Shown here: piece after piece, positions 1,120 through 52,174 of the stretch | How positions within the stretch are numbered: position 1 is the stretch's first letter | Layout of the letters: each line of letters starts with the position of its first letter | NCBI GenBank assembly: GCA_964575795.1 | Contig: CAZNSP010000014.1 | Location: forward strand, 22,886 to 86,885 | Reading direction: 5' to 3' | Source: an uncultured Rhodobacterales bacterium | GTDB taxonomy: Bacteria; Pseudomonadota; Alphaproteobacteria; Rhodobacterales; Rhodobacteraceae | Length of the DNA: 64,000 bases | Translations under genes and position numbers: made by a program | The notes under the pieces: model-generated | The model's input: the letters and a program-made list of their open reading frames with translations, nothing else | Database searches by the model: none | What the model was told of the DNA's origin: nothing

Positions 1120-1881
1120 ATGGCTTCGCTTTCGGGCAAGAGCGCGATCGTCACCGGCGCGAGCCGGGGAATCGGCGCCGCCACCGCGAGGGCGCTGGCC
1201 GCCGAAGGCGCGGCGGTGACGCTGCTCGCCCGCGGACGCGAGGCCGTCGAGGCGCTGGCGGCCGAACTGCGCAGGACCGGCGCGCAGGTCCAGGCGATGG
1301 CCTGTGACGTGGCGGATTTCGTCCAGGTCCAGACCGCCGTGAACGGCGCACGCAACGCCTTCGGCCGCGTCGACATCCTCATCAACAACGCCGCGGTGAT
1401 CGAGCCGATCGGCTCGCTGTCGTCCTCCGACCCGGTTGCCTGGGCACGCGCGATCGACATCAACGTGAAGGGCGTCTACCACGGCATGCGCGCGGTCCTT
1501 CCGGGGATGCGGGCGCAGGGGTCGGGGATCATCGTCAACATCGGCTCGGGGGCTGCCCACAACCCGCTGGAAGGGTGGAGCCAGTACTGCAGCTCCAAGG
1601 CGGCGACGGCGATGCTGACCCGCTGCGGCCATCTCGAGAACAAGGGCCGCGGCATCCGCGTCGTCAGCCTCTCGCCCGGCACGGTCGCCACCGACATGCA
1701 GCGCAAGATCCGTGCGAGCGGCATCAACCCGGTCAGCCAGATCGAATTCTCGGCCCATGCGCCGGTCGAGGCGCCCGCTAAGGCCGTCGTCTGGATTTGC
1801 GGACCGGACGCGGCTGAATTTGCCGGGCAGGAGGTCAGCCTGCGGGACCCCGCCATCCGGGCCCGGGTCGGTCTCGACTGA
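1120..1881 (+). CDS. SDR family oxidoreductase
   Basis: TGASRGIG Rossmann motif, NNAA, catalytic YCSSK (YxxxK). Confidence 0.92.
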   Translation: MASLSGKSAIVTGASRGIGAATARALAAEGAAVTLLARGREAVEALAAELRRTGAQVQAMACDVADFVQVQTAVNGARNAFGRVDILINNAAVIEPIGSLSSSDPVAWARAIDINVKGVYHGMRAVLPGMRAQGSGIIVNIGSGAAHNPLEGWSQYCSSKAATAMLTRCGHLENKGRGIRVVSLSPGTVATDMQRKIRASGINPVSQIEFSAHAPVEAPAKAVVWICGPDAAEFAGQEVSLRDPAIRARVGLD

Positions 1882-1887
1882 GGCCGG

Positions 1888-2523
1888 TCACTCCGCCGCC
1901 GTCAGCACGTCGACCACGTTCGCGCGGACTAGCTCCGCAGCGCCGGGATACCACATCGCATCGTGCGGCGTCGCCCTGACCGCGTCGAGGAAGGCTTCCG
2001 GCACCGCCCGGCGTCGAAAGGTGTCGAAGTCCTTTTCGAGTTCACGGGCGGGATCGCGCATCATGACCGCGAGCGGCCCGAGCATGGCATAGCGGTGGAA
2101 GCCGAGGCGGGCGCCCGGCGGGAGGTGGCGCTTCTGCCCGCTGACGAAGACCAGAGTGCAGACCGAGGTGCAGTCCCCCTCGGCCACGGTGTCGAGCCCG
2201 TGGCGCTCGATCAGCCGCGCCAGCCCGCGCGCTTCGGCAACCCGTCCGCCCGGGCTCTCGAGGCGGATCAGCCTTATGCCGGGGGAACCTTCCACGAGCT
2301 CGGTCATGCGCCGGGTCGCCCCGAAATCGATGACGCCGGCAAGCACGATGCTGCGGCCGTCGGCGGAGCGTTCGATCTGGTAGGGTTCCTGCGTCACGGG
2401 CATCTCGGCCCTGGCCGGCGCCCGGGTCCCGGCGATCACCAACGCAATCAGCGCGACAGCGCTCGCGACACCGATCGCGGCGAGCGCCAGACTGCCGACC
2501 GTCCCCGTCCTCAGTTGCGCCAT
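1888..2523 (-). CDS. Membrane-anchored periplasmic protein with ClpP/crotonase-like domain (COG3904-like); start uncertain (2523 or 2559)
   Basis: N-terminal hydrophobic segment; LESPGGRVAEA, CTSVCTLVF and RLGFH motifs. Confidence 0.6.
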   Translation of the reverse strand: MAQLRTGTVGSLALAAIGVASAVALIALVIAGTRAPARAEMPVTQEPYQIERSADGRSIVLAGVIDFGATRRMTELVEGSPGIRLIRLESPGGRVAEARGLARLIERHGLDTVAEGDCTSVCTLVFVSGQKRHLPPGARLGFHRYAMLGPLAVMMRDPARELEKDFDTFRRRAVPEAFLDAVRATPHDAMWYPGAAELVRANVVDVLTAAE

Positions 2524-2599
2524 AGGGATCCTCCGACGCCCGCGCCGTCCGATGCGCATGTCGATCCTACCACGCCTGCCCGCGAATGCCTGCGACGTT

Positions 2600-2899
2600 T
2601 CAGCGCCGCCGTCGTCGCGGTCCGGCGGTGCGCGCGTGGAAATGCGGCGGTCGCTCGGCGACCCAGGCGAGGAACCGCGCGATCCGCGGATCGGCCCGCA
2701 GCGCCTCGACGGTCGAACGGCCGCGCGCAAGTTCCGCCTCGGTGAAGGCCGCGTGCACCGCGTTGTGGCAGATCTGGTGCAACAGCACGGTGGGCCCGTG
2801 CGTCCCGCCCTTCAGCCGCGGCGTGAGGTGATGCCGGCTCTGCGGCGCGCCGGGCGGAATCGGCCGCAGACACAGCGGACAGACCGGGTCATCGCTCAC
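2600..2899 (-). CDS. Small HNH endonuclease family protein
   Basis: GTG start; CPLC...SRHHLTPRLKGG...LHQICHNAVH zinc/HNH signature; 99 aa. Confidence 0.8.
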   Translation of the reverse strand: MSDDPVCPLCLRPIPPGAPQSRHHLTPRLKGGTHGPTVLLHQICHNAVHAAFTEAELARGRSTVEALRADPRIARFLAWVAERPPHFHARTAGPRRRRR

Positions 2900-3065
2900 C
2901 GAAGCCCTCCCCCATCCGCTGTCGCCTGAAAGCCCGTACCGTCCGGCGCATGCATCCCTTTTCCATACCGGCCGCCCCGCGAATTCGCCAGCGCGCCCCG
3001 ACGCTACCCCTTGTCGCAGCACCGACCGCGCTTGCGGCCCGCGGCGGGTTCGGCGATGTGGGGAC

Positions 3066-4271
3066 ATGGAACGGGTGGATACACTGGTGATCGGCGGCGG
3101 ACCCGCGGGGCTGATGGCGGCCGAGACCATCGCCGCGCGCGGCCACCGGGTGCTGATCGCCGAGGCAAAGCCGTCGCTCGGCCGCAAGTTCCTGATGGCT
3201 GGCAAGTCCGGGCTGAACCTGACCAAGGACGAGCCACCCGACACGTTCGCCGCCGCCTATCCCGAAGGTGCAACCTGGCTCGCACCGATGCTCGCGGCCT
3301 TCGGGCCGGAGGCGGTCCGGGACTGGGCGCGCGGACTGGGCCAGGAAGTCTTCACCGGCTCCTCGGGACGCGTCTTTCCGGTGGCCATGAAGGCCTCGCC
3401 GCTCCTCCGCGCCTGGGCCCTGCGGCTGGCGGAACTCGGCGTGACGGTGCGCACGCGCTGGCGGTGGCAGGGCTGGCGCAACGGCGCGGCGGTCTTCGCG
3501 ACCCCCGAGGGTGAGGTGCTCGTGGACGCCGGCGCGACCGTGCTCGCACTCGGCGGCGGATCCTGGGCGCGGCTGGGATCGGACGCGGCCTGGGTCCCGA
3601 TCCTGCGCGATGCGGGGGTGGAGGTCGCAGCCTTCCGGCCCTCGAACGTCGGATTCGACCTGCACTGGACCGATCACATGGCCCGCCACTACGGCACACC
3701 CGTCAAGGCGGTGGCGCTGACCGCCGGCGGACGCCGGGTGACGGGCGAGTTCGTCATCACGCGCCACGGGATCGAGGGAGGGGCGGTCTATGCGCTTGCG
3801 CCTCTTCTCCGGGAGGGCGCCGCTCTGGTTCTCGACCTCGTCCCCGACCTCCCGGCCGACAGGATCGCGCAGCGGCTCGGCCGGCCCCGGGGCAAGGCCA
3901 GCCTGTCGAACCACTTCCGCAAGACGCTCGGCCTGCCGGCGGTGAAGCTCGCGCTCCTGCGGGAATTTGCGCCCGCCGCCCTCGCCGATCCCGCGGCCGC
4001 GGCCCGAGCCCTGAAGGCCCTGCCCGTGCCGCTGGCCGTGCCGCGCCCGATCGACGAGGCGATCTCGACGGCCGGCGGCGTGACGCGGGCGGCGCTCGAC
4101 GAGGCGCTGATGCTGCGCTCCCGCCCCGGTACGTTCTGCGCCGGCGAGATGCTCGACTGGGACGCGCCGACCGGCGGCTACCTCCTGACCGCCTGCCTCG
4201 CCACCGGTCGCTGGGCCGGAAAGGGCGCCGCCGACCGGCTCGAGACCGCAGGTGCGCCGGCGGGGCCCTGA
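3066..4271 (+). CDS. HI0933/BaiN-like NAD(P)/FAD-dependent flavoprotein
   Basis: GGGPAG FAD motif, GRKFLMAGKSGLNLT, GRVFP, TAGGV, GEMLDWDAPTGGYLL. Confidence 0.9.
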   Translation: MERVDTLVIGGGPAGLMAAETIAARGHRVLIAEAKPSLGRKFLMAGKSGLNLTKDEPPDTFAAAYPEGATWLAPMLAAFGPEAVRDWARGLGQEVFTGSSGRVFPVAMKASPLLRAWALRLAELGVTVRTRWRWQGWRNGAAVFATPEGEVLVDAGATVLALGGGSWARLGSDAAWVPILRDAGVEVAAFRPSNVGFDLHWTDHMARHYGTPVKAVALTAGGRRVTGEFVITRHGIEGGAVYALAPLLREGAALVLDLVPDLPADRIAQRLGRPRGKASLSNHFRKTLGLPAVKLALLREFAPAALADPAAAARALKALPVPLAVPRPIDEAISTAGGVTRAALDEALMLRSRPGTFCAGEMLDWDAPTGGYLLTACLATGRWAGKGAADRLETAGAPAGP

Positions 4272-4280
4272 GCGCCGCCG

Positions 4281-5303
4281 CTATCGCGGCGCCAGCATGG
4301 CGATGCGGATGAAGGTGCGCTCGACCATCGCCATGCTCGGCACCGGCCGCGACGACCGCAGGGCGAGATCGGTATCCATGATCATGCCGAGCGCGCGCTC
4401 CAGCCGCCCCTGACCCAGCCGCCGCACCTGAGCCGCCATCCGGTCGCGGCGCGGGCCGAAGACCGGCGGGCGGGCACGGCCCAGCGCCGCCTCGGGCGCC
4501 TCGCCGGACACGGCGGCAGCATGGAGCGTGCGGAAATGCCGCGCGGCCCCGATCATCAACCCGGTCGGGCTCGCGCCCTGCGCGGCCAGGCGCTGCATCT
4601 GGGCGCCGAGCGCGGCGGTCTCGCCCTCGGCCACCATGTGCAGCATCTCGTCGATATCCGCCTCGACCGAGAGCGGCGCGCAGGCCGCGACATCCGCCGG
4701 CGTCAGCGGCGCAGGATCGTCGCCCTTGTAGAGCGCGAGCTTCTCGACGAACTGCGCGAAGTCGCCCGGATCGACGGCACGCGCATGCGCGGTCAGCGCC
4801 GCCAGCGCATCCGGCGGCACGCGCGACAGGCCGGCGCGGGCAAGGGCGGCCTCGACCTCCGCCTGTCCGGGGGGATCGGCATGGACCGCCACCGCGAAGG
4901 CGTTCCGCGCCGCCTCGACCCCCTTGCGCAACCGCGACTTCGCCGCGAGCGCGCCCGCGGTCACGACGAGTTCCGCATCGCCCGACCGCCAGTCCGCGAA
5001 GGCGGCGAGAATCGTGTCCGCCTGGCCTTCGCCCGCGTCCTCGACCAGGACGACGCGGTGGCCCGGAAAGAAGCCGACCGCCTTCATCGCATCGACCAGC
5101 GCGGCGGGATCGCGGCGCAGATCGCCCCCCTGCAGCCGGGTCAGCCGCATCTCGCCCTCGCCGCCGGGTCCGATCAGCGCCGCCACCAGATCCCGGCGCA
5201 GGAGCGCGATCCGCATCGGGTCGGGACCGAACATCAGCACCCCCGCCCGGGCCGGGTCCGGACGCCCGAGGTCGCGCAACAGGTCCCGCGCCGCGAGCTT
5301 CAC
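4281..5303 (-). CDS. holA: DNA polymerase III subunit delta
   Basis: 340 aa; VLMFGPD, ELVVTAG, EKLALY motifs; conserved leuS-lptE-holA order. Confidence 0.9.
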   Translation of the reverse strand: MKLAARDLLRDLGRPDPARAGVLMFGPDPMRIALLRRDLVAALIGPGGEGEMRLTRLQGGDLRRDPAALVDAMKAVGFFPGHRVVLVEDAGEGQADTILAAFADWRSGDAELVVTAGALAAKSRLRKGVEAARNAFAVAVHADPPGQAEVEAALARAGLSRVPPDALAALTAHARAVDPGDFAQFVEKLALYKGDDPAPLTPADVAACAPLSVEADIDEMLHMVAEGETAALGAQMQRLAAQGASPTGLMIGAARHFRTLHAAAVSGEAPEAALGRARPPVFGPRRDRMAAQVRRLGQGRLERALGMIMDTDLALRSSRPVPSMAMVERTFIRIAMLAPR

Positions 5304-5809
5304 CCCGGCCAGTCCCCCGCCGTGACGGCCAGCCGCATGACGATCCGATCGGCGAGCGTCCGCGCGAGCCGCCGTTCCGCATCCTGCCGCGCGACCCGGC
5401 TCGCATAGGCGAAGGACGTGGTCGACACCGGCGCGGTATAGGCGGTCTGCTGGGTCAGGCGCTCTTCCAGCACCGCCGGACCCCCGCCGAGCGGGACCAG
5501 CCGCATGTCGGCGGTGGCGATCACGCTGTAGGTCACGATCTCGCTCTGCTGGGTGATGCCCGATTCGACCTCGCGCAGCGTCAGATCCACCGTCAGCCGA
5601 TGGCTCGGTGCATCCGGCACGCCCAGCCGCTCGGTCAGACGCTCGCGCATCACGAAGCCCGCGTCACCGTCGATCGTCGCCACCTCCACACGGCCGACCA
5701 TCTCGCCCGCCGGCGACCCGGTGCCGTAGAGCGGCTCGAAGCCGCAGCCCGCCAGCAGCGGCAGCGCCGCGAGCAGGCCGAGCGCCCGGCGGCGCTCAGA
5801 CGACCACAT
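5300..5809 (-). CDS. lptE: LPS assembly lipoprotein LptE
   Basis: Lipobox LAGC followed by GFEPLYG; lies between leuS and holA, overlapping both. Confidence 0.85.
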
Positions 5810-23195: not shown

Positions 23196-23270
23196 GCCCG
23201 GGTAGCTCAGGGGTAGAGCAGCGGATTGAAAATCCGCGTGTCGGTGGTTCAAATCCGCCCCCGGGCACCA
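23196..23270 (+). tRNA. tRNA-Phe (GAA)
   Basis: Cloverleaf: acceptor GCCCGGG/CCCGGGC, D arm GCTC/GAGC, anticodon arm GCGGA-TTGAAAA-TCCGC, T loop TTCAAAT, encoded CCA. Confidence 0.97.
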
Positions 23271-31090: not shown

Positions 31091-31543
31091 ATGTCCCCGC
31101 AAGGCACCAGTGAGGAGAGCCTGCCCGACACCGCCGCGCGCCAGCGCGCCGCGGCCTGGCTCGGCGCCGCGGGCCTGCGCCCCACCCGCCAGCGCCTCGC
31201 GCTGGCCGAGCTCCTCGTCGGCGACGGCCGCAACCGCCACGTGACGGCCGAGAGCCTGCACGAAGCCGCGCTCGCCCAGACCGAGCCCGTCTCGCTCGCC
31301 ACCGTCTACAACACGCTCCGCGCCTTCTGCGACGCCGGCCTCCTGACCGAGGTCACCGTCGACGGCACCCGCTCCTATTTCGACACCCGCATCGACGACC
31401 ACCCCCACTACTACTGGGAAGAAAACGGCCACCTCACCGACGCCCCCGCCGACGCCATCCGCCTGATGGGCCAGCCCCGCCTCCCCGAAGGCGCCGAGCT
31501 GTCGCGGATCGACGTGGTTATCAGGTTGAGGAGAAGGGGGTAG
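31091..31543 (+). CDS. irr: Fur-family iron response regulator Irr
   Basis: [30 protein letters not shown]; divergent from fabA as in other alphaproteobacteria. Confidence 0.88.
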
Positions 31544-31562
31544 GCGGCTTCGGTCTCGCCTA
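31541..31562. terminator. Hairpin between convergent irr and toxin-like ORF, with both stop codons in its arms
   Basis: TAGGCG-gc-TTCG-gt-ct-CGCCTA. Confidence 0.45.
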
Positions 31563-31982
31563 CGGCAGGCAGCCGAGTTCCTGGACGATGACTCGTACTC
31601 GAGCCGGAGACAGCTTGGGCGAAGCACGGACCGCTGCGCAAACCGCCTCCCGATCCGAGGCATGAATCGCCCCGACGATACCCTGCCGGCTCGGATTCAT
31701 CTGCCTGCCCAGCAGCAACTCGAGTTCCGCATCTGTAACGGTGATCAGATCACCGCCGCACCCGATGAAACTGTCATGTGCAAGAAACCGTGGATAAAGC
31801 GCATTAGAAAGCGGCGCGCACAATTCGGTATACTTCTGCGAGTTGATTCTCAGGAACCACAGATCGGCCCGCGAGACACAGACCCACATCTTGTGCTTGC
31901 TCGGGTTGGCCCTGTCGTCGAACGGGAACACGACATCCCAGGGCGCGAGTGCAGCAACCGTCGCAACCGGATCAAAGCACAA
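31560..31982 (-). CDS. Putative toxin, divergent PemK/MazF-like fold
   Basis: TTG start overlapping the upstream gene by 11 nt; block order [40 protein letters not shown] parallels PemK/MazF; low GC (31741-31860: 59/120 A+T by hand count). Confidence 0.6.
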
Positions 31983-32520
31983 GGCGCGGACCCATCGCCT
32001 CCAGATCCTCGATCAGCTCGGCACGGCCCGGAAGATCGGGCCGGATCATGTCCTCGTAGGCCATCCGCTGCCCGTCCCGGCGAGTACCCTCGACCCAGTC
32101 CATGCCATGGGTCTCGCGCGTCCGCTGGTCGAACGTCATGGCTCTGCACTGCGCGAACGCGTCCCGCAGGATGTCCATTTCAACGGGCGCGATCTCGCTG
32201 TAGATTCGGGGCTCATTCCACCCCGGATTCAGCTTGACCCGGTAGCCCGTCCGCTCCCACGGGTATTCGTCTCGGGCGAGTTCGGTGAGCCAGTAGGGCT
32301 CGCACTTGAGCATCTCGTAGATCTCGAGCGGCACCGGACCGTAGTTCATGGCACGATAATTCGCCCCGAAGACCGGACGGCCGTGCTCGTTGAGCATCTG
32401 CTTGTCGGCGAAATACGCCGCCTTGAGGATAGTGTGGAAATCCACTTCCTTGCCGGCGTTCTCAAGCATCCACTCCACGGCCTGCAGAGCCTTCAAGGGA
32501 TTGAAGCGGAACTGGATCAC
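31972..32520 (-). CDS. Panacea-domain (DUF4065, SocA-like) antitoxin PanA
   Basis: GTG start 6 nt after GGAGGA; ILKAAYFAD, PVFGANYRAMNYGPVPLEIYEMLK, RETHGMDW match Panacea motifs (KLLY, GPV, TH..W). Confidence 0.85.
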   Translation of the reverse strand: MIQFRFNPLKALQAVEWMLENAGKEVDFHTILKAAYFADKQMLNEHGRPVFGANYRAMNYGPVPLEIYEMLKCEPYWLTELARDEYPWERTGYRVKLNPGWNEPRIYSEIAPVEMDILRDAFAQCRAMTFDQRTRETHGMDWVEGTRRDGQRMAYEDMIRPDLPGRAELIEDLEAMGPRLVL

Positions 32521-32596
32521 CGGCTTTCCTCCGCACACATTTCACCACTCCGGCCAAAGTTTAGCACATGATGTCAAGCCCGGCCTAAATCCTCCC

Positions 32597-33163
32597 CTAC
32601 TCCACCCCCCACAACACCCCCTTCGCCACCCAGCCGTCGATCCGCCCGGCGCTGATCCGGCACCACACCCCCTCGCATTCCTCCGGCGACTCCGCGCTGA
32701 TCCGGCACCAGTCGCCGTCGCAGCCTTCCAGCCGGGCGATCGCCCCCGGCTCCATCCAGGCGATCAGCCTGCCCCGGTCCGAGGGCTCGGTCAGCATCGG
32801 CGCCATCTCCGCGCCCTGCACCATCACCGTCCGCGCCCCGGAGAGAAGCCCGTGGTGCATCCAGCCGCCCTGCCCCTCGGCATCCTCGACCCGCCGCCAC
32901 TGGCCGTATTCCGCCACCACCTTCAGCGGCAGCCCGCGGCGCCGGAATTCCCAGTCGACCCGGTAGCTCAGGTTCGGCCCCCGCCGCGCATTGGCCGAGC
33001 CGGCCTTGAGCGAGACGTAGCGCGGCAGCGGCAGGTTCGTCACCGGCCCGCGCTCGGCCTCGGCCACCGCCTCCTCCGCCGCCGCATACAGCACTCCGCC
33101 CGGCGCAGGCACCACCGCCAGCACCGCGACGAGCACGGCCAACCGCAAGGACAAAGCCCGCAT
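32597..33163 (-). CDS. Tandem bacterial SH3 (SH3_4) domain protein
   Basis: Signal peptide; PVTNLPLPRYVSLK, NARRGP, WRRVEDAEGQGGWMH. Confidence 0.85.
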   Translation of the reverse strand: MRALSLRLAVLVAVLAVVPAPGGVLYAAAEEAVAEAERGPVTNLPLPRYVSLKAGSANARRGPNLSYRVDWEFRRRGLPLKVVAEYGQWRRVEDAEGQGGWMHHGLLSGARTVMVQGAEMAPMLTEPSDRGRLIAWMEPGAIARLEGCDGDWCRISAESPEECEGVWCRISAGRIDGWVAKGVLWGVE

Positions 33164-40630: not shown

Positions 40631-40729
40631 TGCCCTCCCACGCCGGCACGGGCCGCTTCCAGCCCCTTGCCCCCGCAACGCCATGGCCCTAGAACCTCCT
40701 CACGGACAGAACCGCGACAGGTGACCCGA

Positions 40730-42214
40730 ATGGCTGAACTCGCCTATTCCGAACCCGAACCCAAGATCATCGCGGGTGCGAAGGGCGACTGGGAAATGGT
40801 CATCGGCATGGAAGTCCATGCACAGGTCCAGTCGAAGGCCAAGCTTTTCTCGGGCGCTTCTACCGCTTTTGGGGCACCGCCCAACACGAACGTCAGCCTC
40901 GTCGATGCCGCGATGCCGGGAATGCTTCCCGTTGTCAACGGATACTGCGTCGAGCAGGCCGTCCGGACCGGCCTCGGTCTGAAGGCGAAGATCAACCTCT
41001 ATTCTCGGTTCGACCGCAAGAATTACTTCTATCCCGACCTGCCGCAGGGCTACCAGATCAGCCAGCTCTACCACCCGATCGTCGGCGAGGGCGAGATCCT
41101 CGTGGACCTCGCACCCGGAATAGCGCGCAAGGTCCGCGTCGAACGGATCCACCTCGAACAGGACGCCGGCAAGTCGATCCACGAAATGCATCCGAACATG
41201 TCCTTCGTCGATCTCAACAGGTCTGGCGTCGCCTTGATGGAGATTGTTTCCCGTCCCGACATCCGGGGCCCCGAGGAAGCCGCCGAATACATTCGGAAAC
41301 TGCGCCAGATCCTGCGTTACCTCGGCACCTGCGACGGCAACATGCAGGAAGGCAGCCTGCGCGCCGACGTGAACGTCTCGGTCCGGCCAAAAGGATCGAC
41401 CGAACTCGGCACGCGCTGCGAAATCAAGAACATGAATTCGATGCGCTTTATCCAGCAGGCCATCGAATACGAGGCGCGCCGGCAAATCGCCATCCTCGAG
41501 GATGGCGGCGAGATCGAGCAGGAAACCCGCCTTTACGATCCGAACCGAGGCGAAACCCGCTCGATGCGCTCCAAGGAGGAGGCGCACGACTACCGTTACT
41601 TCCCCTGCCCCGACCTTCTGCCGCTCGAACTGGAACAGGCATGGGTGGACGGCATCGCCGCCGGCCTGCCGGAGCTGCCGGACCAGAAGAAGGCGCGCTT
41701 CGTTCTCGACTACGGGATGACCGAATACGATGCCGGTGTCCTGACCGCCGAAGTCGCCAGCGCCGATTACTTCGAGTCGGTGGCCCGCGGCAGGGACGGC
41801 AAGCAGGCCGCCAACTGGGTGATCAACGAACTGTTCGGACGGCTCAACAAGGAAGGCCACGCCATCGAGGACAGCCCGATCAGCCCCGACCAGCTCGGCG
41901 GGCTGATCGACCTGATCGCGCGCGGCGACATTTCCGGCAAGATTGCCAAGGACTTGTTCGAGATCCTCTGGACCGAGGGCGGCGACCCTGCGGCCATCGT
42001 CGAGGAACGCGGCATGCGTCAGGTCACCGACCTCGGCGCAATAGAAGCCGCAGTCGACGAAGTAATCGCGGCGAACCCCGACAAGGTCGCCCAGGCCCAG
42101 GCAAAGCCGGCGCTCGCCGGATGGTTCGTCGGCCAGGTGATGAAATCGACAGGGGGCAAGGCGAACCCCCAGGCAGTAAACGAGCTTGTCCGCAAGAAGA
42201 TCGGCATCGAATAG
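40730..42214 (+). CDS. gatB: Asp-tRNA(Asn)/Glu-tRNA(Gln) amidotransferase subunit B
   Basis: [39 protein letters not shown]. Confidence 0.97.
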
Positions 42215-50312: not shown

Positions 50313-51140
50313 TCAGAGCCACTGCCCTCGCACGACCTGGCGATAGACCTGGGTGAGCCAGCTTTCGCCCACATCCTCGGGACGGAGGCCCTGCCCGGTC
50401 AGCAGGATGTAGGTATCCTGATACCAGTCGGAACCCTGGAAGTTGTAGCCGAGGATCGCGCCCGCGGTCTGCGCTTCCGACACGAGGCCCAGCGAGAGAT
50501 AGGATTCTACAAGACGGTGAAGCGCCTCAGGCGTGTGGTCGGTGGTCTGATATTCTTCAACGACGACACGGAACCGGTTGATCGCGGCCGCATAGTGGCC
50601 GCGTTTCAGATAGTATCTCCCGACTTCCATCTCCTTGCCGGCCAGATGGTTGAGTGTCAGCTCGAACTTCATCTCGGCCGATTTTGCATACTCGCTGTCC
50701 GGGTAGCGTTCGATGATGTCCCGCAGCTCCTGCAGTGCATCGAATGTATTTCGCTGGTCCCGGCTCACGTCCACGATCTGATCGTAGTAGCTCAGGGCCA
50801 CCAGGAACTGCGCGTAGGGAGCGTCCACATCGGCGGGGAAGAAGTCCAGGTACCGATTGGCCGCCGCGCGGCTCTCGGCGTACAGACTTCCCTCGTGATA
50901 GGCGAACGCTGACATCAGCATCGCCCTCTTGGCCCACTCAGAATACGGATAAAGGCGCTCCACCTCGGAGAACTGCTCCCCCGCCTCCCTCGGCCTTCCG
51001 GCAGCGAGGAGCGCCTCCGCGCCGAGATAGATCTCCTCGGGCGAGCGGGATTCGATCGGAGCTTCGCGGGTTCCGCCCCCGCAGCCGGCGAGGGAAATGA
51101 GGAGTGCAATCCAAAGGCCTTTGATTGCTCCCCGCCACAT
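50313..51140 (-). CDS. bamD: Outer-membrane assembly lipoprotein BamD
   Basis: Lipobox LAGC; TPR helices; EMEVGRYY; between lpxC and recN. Confidence 0.92.
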   Translation of the reverse strand: MWRGAIKGLWIALLISLAGCGGGTREAPIESRSPEEIYLGAEALLAAGRPREAGEQFSEVERLYPYSEWAKRAMLMSAFAYHEGSLYAESRAAANRYLDFFPADVDAPYAQFLVALSYYDQIVDVSRDQRNTFDALQELRDIIERYPDSEYAKSAEMKFELTLNHLAGKEMEVGRYYLKRGHYAAAINRFRVVVEEYQTTDHTPEALHRLVESYLSLGLVSEAQTAGAILGYNFQGSDWYQDTYILLTGQGLRPEDVGESWLTQVYRQVVRGQWL

Positions 51141-51256: not shown

Positions 51257-52174
51257 TCAGGCAGTCCGACGGAGTTCCATGTCGACTGCACCCGCTCCCG
51301 GAAGGGACCTGGCCAGCTTCCGGTCGACCTGGACGATCCGCCGCGCATCGGGAGTCGCGAACAATTTCCGCAGAAGCCTGTTCGTGGCTCCGTGACCAGC
51401 GCGCACGCCCTTGTAGAGACCGATGATCGGCATGCCCGCAAGCGCGAGATCTCCGACGGCGTCGAGCATCTTGTGCCGAACGAATTCGTCGGACCGACGC
51501 AGCCCACCGGGATTGAGGACGCGATCACCGTCCACCACGATCGCATTCTCTAGCGACCCGCCCAGCGCGAGGCCGGCCTGCTGCATCATCTCGACGTCCG
51601 CGCGCCGGCAGAACGTCCGGCAATCGGCCAGTTCGTGAACGAAGGTACCGTTGACGATCTCGAACGACTGGCTCTGGCTACCGATGGCCGCGTCCGGGAA
51701 CTCGATCCGGAAGTCGACCCGGAACTCTGGCGCCGGCAGCAGCTCCGCCCGGACGTCGCCGTCCACGAACGCAACCGGCTTCACGATTTCGAGCGCCATC
51801 AGTGGCAGTGGCAGTTCACGAATTCCCGCACGCTCTATCGCCTTGACGAAGCGCTTCGCACTTCCGTCCATGATCGGCACTTCCGGGCCGTCGAGATCCA
51901 CGATCGCATTGTGCACACCGCATCCGGCGAATGCCGCCATCACGTGCTCGACCGTCGAAACCGAAACGCCGGCATGGTTCGTCAACTGGGTGCAAAGGGT
52001 CGTATCGCTCACCAGCGAATACTCCGCAGGAACGACGTTGTCGCGATCGGCAACATCCACCCGTCTGAACCTGATACCGGAATGCTCGGCCGGCCGGATC
52101 ACCATGCGCACGGGACGCCCCGAGTGAAGCCCGGTGCCGACCAGTGTCACATCACGTCTCAGGGTCGTCTGCAT
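51257..52174 (-). CDS. lpxC: UDP-3-O-acyl-GlcNAc deacetylase
   Basis: GTGLHSG, TVEH, HKMLDAVGDL. Confidence 0.96.
   Translation of the reverse strand: MQTTLRRDVTLVGTGLHSGRPVRMVIRPAEHSGIRFRRVDVADRDNVVPAEYSLVSDTTLCTQLTNHAGVSVSTVEHVMAAFAGCGVHNAIVDLDGPEVPIMDGSAKRFVKAIERAGIRELPLPLMALEIVKPVAFVDGDVRAELLPAPEFRVDFRIEFPDAAIGSQSQSFEIVNGTFVHELADCRTFCRRADVEMMQQAGLALGGSLENAIVVDGDRVLNPGGLRRSDEFVRHKMLDAVGDLALAGMPIIGLYKGVRAGHGATNRLLRKLFATPDARRIVQVDRKLARSLPGAGAVDMELRRTA

Follow-up and report, generated by a model that had tools for sequence, protein, structure and literature searches.

Panacea antitoxins (PanA) pair with dozens of toxin folds, and MazF/PemK-like toxins are among them (Kurata et al. 2022, PMC8832971). 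In that study, the toxins (PanTs) of Pseudomonas moraviensis and Bifidobacterium ruminantium, which have no CDD hit and match EndoA/PemK/MazF by HHpred, inhibited translation. Complexes of PanA and PanT were shown for several pairs, and neutralization was independent of ClpXP or Lon (PMC8832971). In Dataset S1 of the same work, the MazF-like PanT clusters are T5, T6 and T9; cluster T5 matches EndoA/MazF by HHpred at 99.5%, above its CcdB score, and cluster T10 contains SocB. Here we describe a two-gene module, panA and panT, on the minus strand of a 64-kb stretch of DNA (contig CAZNSP010000014.1; the whole stretch is hereafter called the window). An earlier note on this DNA had proposed that the two genes are a Panacea antitoxin and a PemK-like toxin. 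The module is very probably a PanAT toxin–antitoxin pair. More specifically, we consider it to be a chromosomally inserted type II pair, in which PanA blocks a MazF-like ribonuclease (RNase), with a probability of roughly 0.7. The RNase mechanism of the toxin, taken by itself, is favored with some reserve.

The module has the same layout as the published PanAT pairs with MazF-like PanTs: the antitoxin gene comes first, the antitoxin has a lone Panacea domain, and a small toxin without a CDD or Pfam hit and with a predicted MazF-type structure is encoded downstream. In contrast, the window toxin family stands apart from the T5-type toxins at ~20% identity, with motifs of its own and extra N- and C-terminal helices, and it differs from the PanTs of Kurata et al. 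in a conserved TTG start that overlaps panA by 11 nt. MazEF and PemIK (Kid-Kis) have in common with the module the toxin fold (template-modeling (TM) score of 0.61-0.69 by target length to M. tuberculosis and S. aureus MazF), the arrangement of N-terminal strand, loop and basic residue, and an antitoxin-first operon with overlapping genes. However, the antitoxin in those systems is an AbrB/SpoVT-type MazE, whereas that of the window is a Panacea protein. Furthermore, the Pfam PemK_toxin model misses the window toxin, in which Lys is aligned to the catalytic Arg and Asn/Ser probably takes the place of the expected Thr. SocAB from Caulobacter crescentus (type VI) likewise combines a Panacea antitoxin without an N-terminal domain and a small downstream toxin, and the host of the window, judging from the fabA-irr surroundings, is probably alphaproteobacterial as well. 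However, the window PanA is far under the cutoff of the SocA equivalog model (24 versus 190 bits), and the fold of the toxin and its link to T5 point to an RNase and not to a clamp binder.

The upstream gene encodes a Panacea protein

The panA gene (31972..32520, minus strand) encodes a 182-aa protein. The Panacea identity of its domain was observed directly: the Pfam model SocA_Panacea (PF13274, DUF4065) matched residues 38-145 of the 188-aa open reading frame (ORF) with 44.9 bits and an E value of 2.6e-11, where the gathering cutoff is 25.7 bits. PHROG 1281 was also matched (E 8e-12). The GPVP motif (G61-P62-V63-P64) is invariant in nine partner PanAs, and the GPV motif has been described as important for Panacea (Kurata et al. 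2022, PMC8832971). The Panacea domain stands alone, without a DNA-binding domain at the N-terminus. Past the region matched by Pfam, the C-terminal tail of the protein (residues 140-182; 43 residues) is acidic, with a charge of -4.5, and is conserved with the pattern YEDMI-PD-P-R-ELI-DLE--GP-LVL. The match to the NCBIfam SocA equivalog covers residues 33-78 only. Judged from these sequence matches, the upstream protein is a PanA and not a SocA orthologue.

Two GTG codons come into question as the start of panA. From the first GTG, the ORF spans 31972..32538 and encodes 188 aa. A GGAGGA ribosome-binding site (32532-32527) is separated by a 6-nt spacer from the GTG at 32520. Because of this site and because the homologues are 180-186 aa long, we prefer the 182-aa start. 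Thus, the strong ribosome-binding site and the Panacea motifs that the earlier note had ascribed to this gene were both found, and the DUF4065 match that it had anticipated was obtained.

The toxin gene starts from TTG and overlaps panA

The toxin gene, panT, is located at 31560..31982 on the minus strand and encodes 140 aa from a TTG start. Both genes are encoded on the minus strand with panA upstream, as the note had described, and they overlap by 11 nt (31972..31982), so that the 3' end of panA lies over the TTG start of the toxin gene (CTTGTGCTTTGA). TTG at 31982 is the sole start codon in the toxin frame upstream of Trp15. The residues upstream of the GTG chosen by gene callers are conserved among the homologues, and some homologues have an ATG start in this upstream part. 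Because no other in-frame start takes in the conserved first strand, we assigned the TTG as the toxin start. A 123-aa version of the window toxin, called by public gene callers from the internal GTG, loses this strand. The -11 register and the TTG (CTTGTNCTNTGA) are present in all seven close-family loci (window, L001, L002, L005, L007, L008 and L011). This arrangement suggests translational coupling of panA and panT.

The same organism is represented by two Logan contigs, L009 (1189-1616) and L010 (1205-1576). The toxin gene is uncalled in L009 and is called with 123 aa from the internal GTG in L010. The toxin family is easily missed or shortened in annotation.

The 76-bp leader of panA (32521..32596, minus strand) was read from the sequence. 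It contains an exact TTGACA hexamer at 32577-32572. A consensus scan of the module strand detected no complete sigma-70 promoter, and none separate for the toxin gene, and a scan for intrinsic terminators on that strand found none. The panA gene may have its own weak promoter, or it may be transcribed by read-through from the co-oriented SH3 gene.

The toxin gene lies beside a Panacea gene at every locus examined

In all 12 toxin-seeded loci (window, L001, L002, L005, L007, L008, L011, L012, L015, L099, L100 and L102), in which toxin identities range from 64% to ~20%, a Panacea gene is located immediately upstream of the toxin gene. Thus, the linkage of the 140-aa ORF to Panacea genes, which the earlier note had offered as a check, proved strict. 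PanA-seeded searches gave two more pairs, one in Sinorhizobium (L097; 99.3% for the toxin against the family profile) and one on a Candidatus Megaera plasmid (L098). Co-divergence was also observed: across nine pairs, the pairwise identity values for PanA correlate with those for the toxin (r = 0.97), PanA being the more conserved of the two. Because the two proteins diverge together, we consider that panA and panT are inherited as one unit.

In contrast to this fixed pairing, the neighborhoods of the relatives vary. For example, an integrase with Arc repressors and an NAD-dependent DNA ligase are among the neighboring genes. The L001 pair is within a phage and adjoins a tail tape-measure gene, the L005 pair is in an integrase-bearing element, and the L012 pair adjoins helicase, PD-(D/E)XK and Vsr genes.

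The toxin belongs to a family without annotation

The toxin has no match in Pfam, NCBIfam, PADLOC, PHROGs or the PDB sequences. We obtained 21 clusters of close homologues (clustering at 90% identity), which are 47-64% identical to the window toxin. The close family has 20 invariant and 16 near-invariant positions, all of which are retained in the window toxin, and its motifs include LWFLRINS and HDSxxGCGGDLI. An exhaustive profile search with the family yielded 275 representatives at E <= 1e-3, mostly of 80-150 aa, and 63 of these at E <= 1e-10. The isoelectric point (pI) of the toxin is 6.8, near neutral.

Judged by its members, the toxin family appears to be one branch of high-GC organisms. 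Named relatives are from metagenome-assembled Hyphomicrobiales and Rhizobiaceae genomes and from Sinorhizobium, and the close family is present in 2 of 185,579 GTDB species genomes. The window toxin gave no tblastn match in PLSDB (plasmids) or INPHARED (phages), and no member of the close family turned up when the viral contigs of IMG/VR were scanned with a pattern. When three distant relatives were used as tblastn queries against PLSDB, only the records of the Sinorhizobium query itself were found. The RefSeq name of one family member was checked and is 'hypothetical protein'. The window sequence itself is present in four DNA runs, all from one study of a sludge metagenome, and is identical in all four.

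The toxin is predicted to have a MazF/PemK fold

We built an AlphaFold2 model of the toxin on the 21-sequence alignment. The predicted local distance difference test (pLDDT) was 93.9 and the predicted TM score (pTM) was 0.88. In a Foldseek search against the PDB, MazF proteins occupy the first 17 ranks, with a probability of 0.99-1.00 and TM of 0.55-0.69 (by target length). They include M. tuberculosis MazF-mt3, MazF-mt9 and MazF-mt1 and S. aureus MazF, and the best match is MazF-mt3 (5hk0; E 6e-4, TM 0.69 by target length). CcdB is absent from the 50 PDB fold matches listed. Against viral models, 7 of the top 8 matches are named 'PemK-like protein' or 'Endoribonuclease'. As compared with MazF, the model has one extra helix at the N-terminal side and one at the C-terminal side. 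Thus, the modeled toxin has the SH3-like barrel of the MazF/PemK fold, and the description of the toxin as PemK-like in the earlier note is right at the level of the fold.

When the 88-member family profile was aligned with the E. coli-type MazF profile by hhalign, 90 columns were matched with an E value of 3.3e-4, and Lys31 was placed on the catalytic Arg29. The N-terminal pattern of the toxin (D-V...P-x-K-x-K-hydrophobic strand) aligns with the loop and catalytic Arg of MazF. In two weak alignments, with S. aureus MazF and with B. subtilis MazF (the sequence used is identical to PDB 4ME7), the beta-4 strand, the D-S motif and the helices follow in order. Across the wide family, conservation of Lys31, which is aligned to R29 of E. 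coli MazF (R25 in B. subtilis), is 90% or more. The position of the catalytic Thr (T52 / T48) would correspond to Asn47/Ser48; this is placed by strand order and not by structural alignment. For Asn47, too, conservation in the wide family is 90% or more.

Relationship to the published PanT clusters

A Parabacteroides distasonis plasmid in PLSDB encodes PanA WP_005777276.1, with a toxin gene at +5 nt, and Dataset S1 places a T5 toxin at +5 nt beside the same PanA (PMC8832971). The T5 status of this toxin, WP_005836787.1, is based on its position beside a PanA that is listed with T5. The family profile A2 matched this toxin by hhalign at 97.2% (E 2.8e-11), and it matched a toxin from a Bacteroides finegoldii plasmid at 97.6% (E 3.5e-12). 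Because of the match to the T5-positioned toxin, we regard the window toxin as a divergent branch of the T5-type MazF-like PanT superfamily. The primer-derived ends of P. moraviensis PanT had no match among the 150 representatives listed.

The earlier note had ranked the module as a candidate for an undescribed system. That part was too strong, since PanA with MazF/PemK-like toxins has already been validated (Kurata et al. 2022, PMC8832971) and the toxin is a remote relative of T5; the system is a described one, and just its toxin sub-family is unannotated. In gene layout, antitoxin domain and toxin fold, the module follows what is already known of PanAT with MazF-like toxins. What is new here is a distinct unannotated toxin sub-family, the conserved TTG start at -11, the apparent substitutions at catalytic positions and the clean insertion site.

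The module is inserted between two convergent core genes

We scanned metagenomes with the Irr protein and obtained 80 related loci. L019 and L023 are the closest relatives that extend past irr. Their FabA, Irr and SH3 proteins are 87-88%, 79-80% and 53% identical, respectively, to those of the window, and the dehydrogenase is 81% identical in L019, the sole contig of the two that reaches this gene. In both relatives, irr and the SH3 gene converge with 2 nt between their stop codons (TGA-TC-TCA), whereas 1,053 bp lie between these codons in the window. Because the site is empty in relatives with fabA-irr-SH3-dehydrogenase synteny, we conclude that the module is a 1,053-bp insertion. The inserted segment (31544..32596, minus strand) lies between the stop codons of the irr-like gene, which belongs to the Fur family (31091..31543, plus strand), and the gene for the SH3_4 protein (32597..33163, minus strand). 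It contains the two-gene module, 16 bp after the toxin stop codon and 76 bp of non-coding sequence, and nothing else.

No integrase and no credible flanking or terminal repeats were found at the module. Two inverted repeats were considered as element ends and rejected: 31504-31514 / 32635-32645 (11 nt, perfect) and 31530-31541 / 32616-32627 (12 nt, 92%). We judged them to be due to chance or native to the site because they fall within coding sequence at the 3' ends of irr and the SH3 gene, and the C-termini encoded there, LWG among them, are conserved in the insertion-free relatives.

The nucleotide composition is a less direct guide to the origin of the module. The GC content is 69.1% in the window, 59.3% in the toxin gene and 62.1% in panA, and the GC content at third codon positions (GC3) is 68.8% in the toxin gene and 82.5% in panA, as compared with 93-95% in the immediate neighbors of the module. 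A 120-nt stretch of about 51% GC in the toxin gene had been counted by hand in the note; the lowest such stretch, at 31731, has 49.2%. However, core genes of the window are equally GC-poor: gatB (40667-42214), bamD/YfiO (50313-51140) and lpxC (51257-52174) have a GC content of 62-64% and a GC3 of 0.77-0.80, in contrast to 0.93-0.95 in most window genes. Therefore, we downgraded the GC content as proof of foreign origin. Composition alone does not prove such an origin; it is shown by the empty site in the relatives, which supports the horizontal acquisition that the note had proposed.

Other cargo is present at the irr/SH3 junction of related loci (L020:534-1466, L034:383-879, L094:3317-4297, L042:927-2279 and L076:344-1680). 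The ORFs of this cargo encode 285 aa (within a 55%-GC stretch), 126 aa, 272 aa or 418 aa, and none is related to PanAT. Thus, the content of the irr/SH3 junction varies from one related genome to another.

Proposed mechanism

Because panA and panT overlap, the two genes are likely co-transcribed. Translation of panT would be coupled to the end of panA, and together with the weak TTG start this would keep the toxin below the level of the antitoxin. By analogy with validated PanA-PanT pairs, PanA would bind the toxin directly and hold it inactive. The contact may be made by the acidic C-terminal tail, in the way that the tail of MazE fills the groove of MazF. When PanA is lost or displaced, the toxin would be freed. 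The freed MazF-fold toxin, which is probably a dimer, would then cleave RNA, with arrest of translation and growth as the predicted outcome.

Several points weigh against this picture of a PanA-controlled RNase. The window toxin was unmatched by Pfam PF02452 (PemK_toxin) at E <= 1, and this model matched one of the 88 members of the toxin family, with an E value of 0.099. Profile searches with the family against the PDB sequences were not significant, and the probability of the hhalign match to E. coli MazF was just 38%. The canonical catalytic Arg and Thr of MazF both appear to be replaced in the toxin. The sole T5 toxin assayed by Kurata et al. is from Chryseobacterium bovis; it was toxic and was unrescued by its own PanA in E. 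coli. The single-sequence AlphaFold2 model of PanA is unusable (pLDDT 38). Finally, the runs that hold the window sequence are DNA only, with no RNA-seq among them.

Alternative readings

MazF and CcdB have a common fold, and a CcdB-like toxin would trap DNA gyrase instead of cutting RNA; the apparent substitution of the canonical Arg and Thr and the near-neutral pI would both suit a gyrase poison. We regard this as highly unlikely because the fold search listed 17 MazF chains at a probability of 0.99-1.00 and CcdB in 0 of 50 PDB matches, because the N-terminal strand pattern follows the loop and catalytic Arg of MazF, and because the T5 relatives score higher to MazF than to CcdB by HHpred. 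A SocAB-like type VI system, in which the toxin binds the beta sliding clamp and blocks replication while PanA, as an adaptor, hands the toxin over to ClpXP and does not sequester it, is also quite unlikely. PanA does give its weak partial match to the SocA model, and the cluster of SocB, T10, shows some likeness to the window family: in the table of Kurata et al., it is almost all alphaproteobacterial, like the probable host of the window, its PanAs are marked 'noNTD', and it has no informative HHpred hit, just as the window family has no sequence match to the PDB. However, PanA falls far short of the SocA equivalog cutoff, the toxin family is tied to T5 (MazF-like) and not demonstrably to T10, and the fold matches of the toxin are RNases. 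In addition, the C-terminus of the toxin is unconserved in the close family, no conserved clamp-binding-like sequence was seen there by eye, and other PanAs neutralize without ClpXP or Lon (PMC8832971). None of the 88 family members matched an NCBIfam model named SocB, if such a model exists. It is improbable, too, that the Panacea-linked toxin family extends to T10, so that SocB would be of the MazF fold, with its target changed from RNA to the sliding clamp; we liken T10 to the window family because neither of them has an informative match by sequence to a protein whose structure is known. If this were true, the changes of Arg to Lys and of Thr to Asn/Ser would mark a non-RNase or altered-specificity branch, and PanA might act partly via proteolysis.

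Two further readings concern what the module does in the cell and are weighed by its setting. In abortive-infection phage defense, PanA would sense a phage cue and release the toxin, which is compatible with the type II mechanism. Panacea has been proposed as a sensor (Ernits et al. 2023), and relatives of the pair are found in a phage (L001), in an integrase element (L005), next to an MmeI-type restriction-modification gene, with three other Panacea genes close by (L011), and near genes for a helicase, PD-(D/E)XK and Vsr (L012). However, no PADLOC model matches the module, the close family has no homologue in INPHARED, IMG/VR or PLSDB, and the window module stands alone between core genes; we therefore hold a role in defense to be possible but doubtful. 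Chromosomal toxin–antitoxin modules often erode, and the weak TTG start and a toxin gene that public gene callers shorten or miss might be taken as signs of a decaying or domesticated remnant with an inactive toxin. This is unlikely: both ORFs are intact, no invariant or near-invariant toxin position has been lost, TTG at -11 is the conserved arrangement of the family, and the four independent runs give the same sequence.

With a type II PanAT pair as the preferred reading, the PanAT catalogue gains a strictly Panacea-linked toxin family of ~275 representative clusters, without a Pfam or NCBIfam match in any member scanned. The family offers a confident model of the MazF fold together with defined conserved residues. 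The module is also a natural example of a minimal toxin–antitoxin module set precisely between two convergent core genes. The understanding of PanAT is unchanged by these results, unless the link to SocB is true.

Other Panacea loci and features of the window

In L011 (positions 1279-5334; ENA ERZ25072384, a 4.1-Mb contig), four Panacea genes are present within 4 kb, and their neighbor is a restriction-modification gene of the MmeI/Eco57I type. The partner of one of the four, at -11 nt, encodes a 179-aa protein homologous to the window toxin. The cluster resembles a row of PanA(T) modules in a setting like that of a defense island. L097 (NZ_CP104135.1, pC101a of Sinorhizobium sp. C101) is filed as a plasmid of 3.52 Mb and has 6 features in the PLSDB gene table. 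The pair is unlisted there; it consists of PanA WP_275596840.1 and toxin WP_275596839.1 ('hypothetical protein'), with a 4-nt overlap, and the toxin belongs to the wide family. On a Phaeobacter inhibens plasmid (NZ_CP081254.1; L105:1498-3213), a Panacea gene is convergent with a gene for an 'abortive infection family protein', with no small toxin gene annotated between them.

Within the window, the SH3 gene contains a direct repeat of 39 nt at 32649-32732, with 79% identity and a spacing of 45 nt. The SH3_4 model matches this gene in three stretches, and the repeat may reflect the repeated domains. The sole Rfam or ARAGORN hit in the 64 kb is a tRNA-Phe (GAA) gene at 23196-23270.

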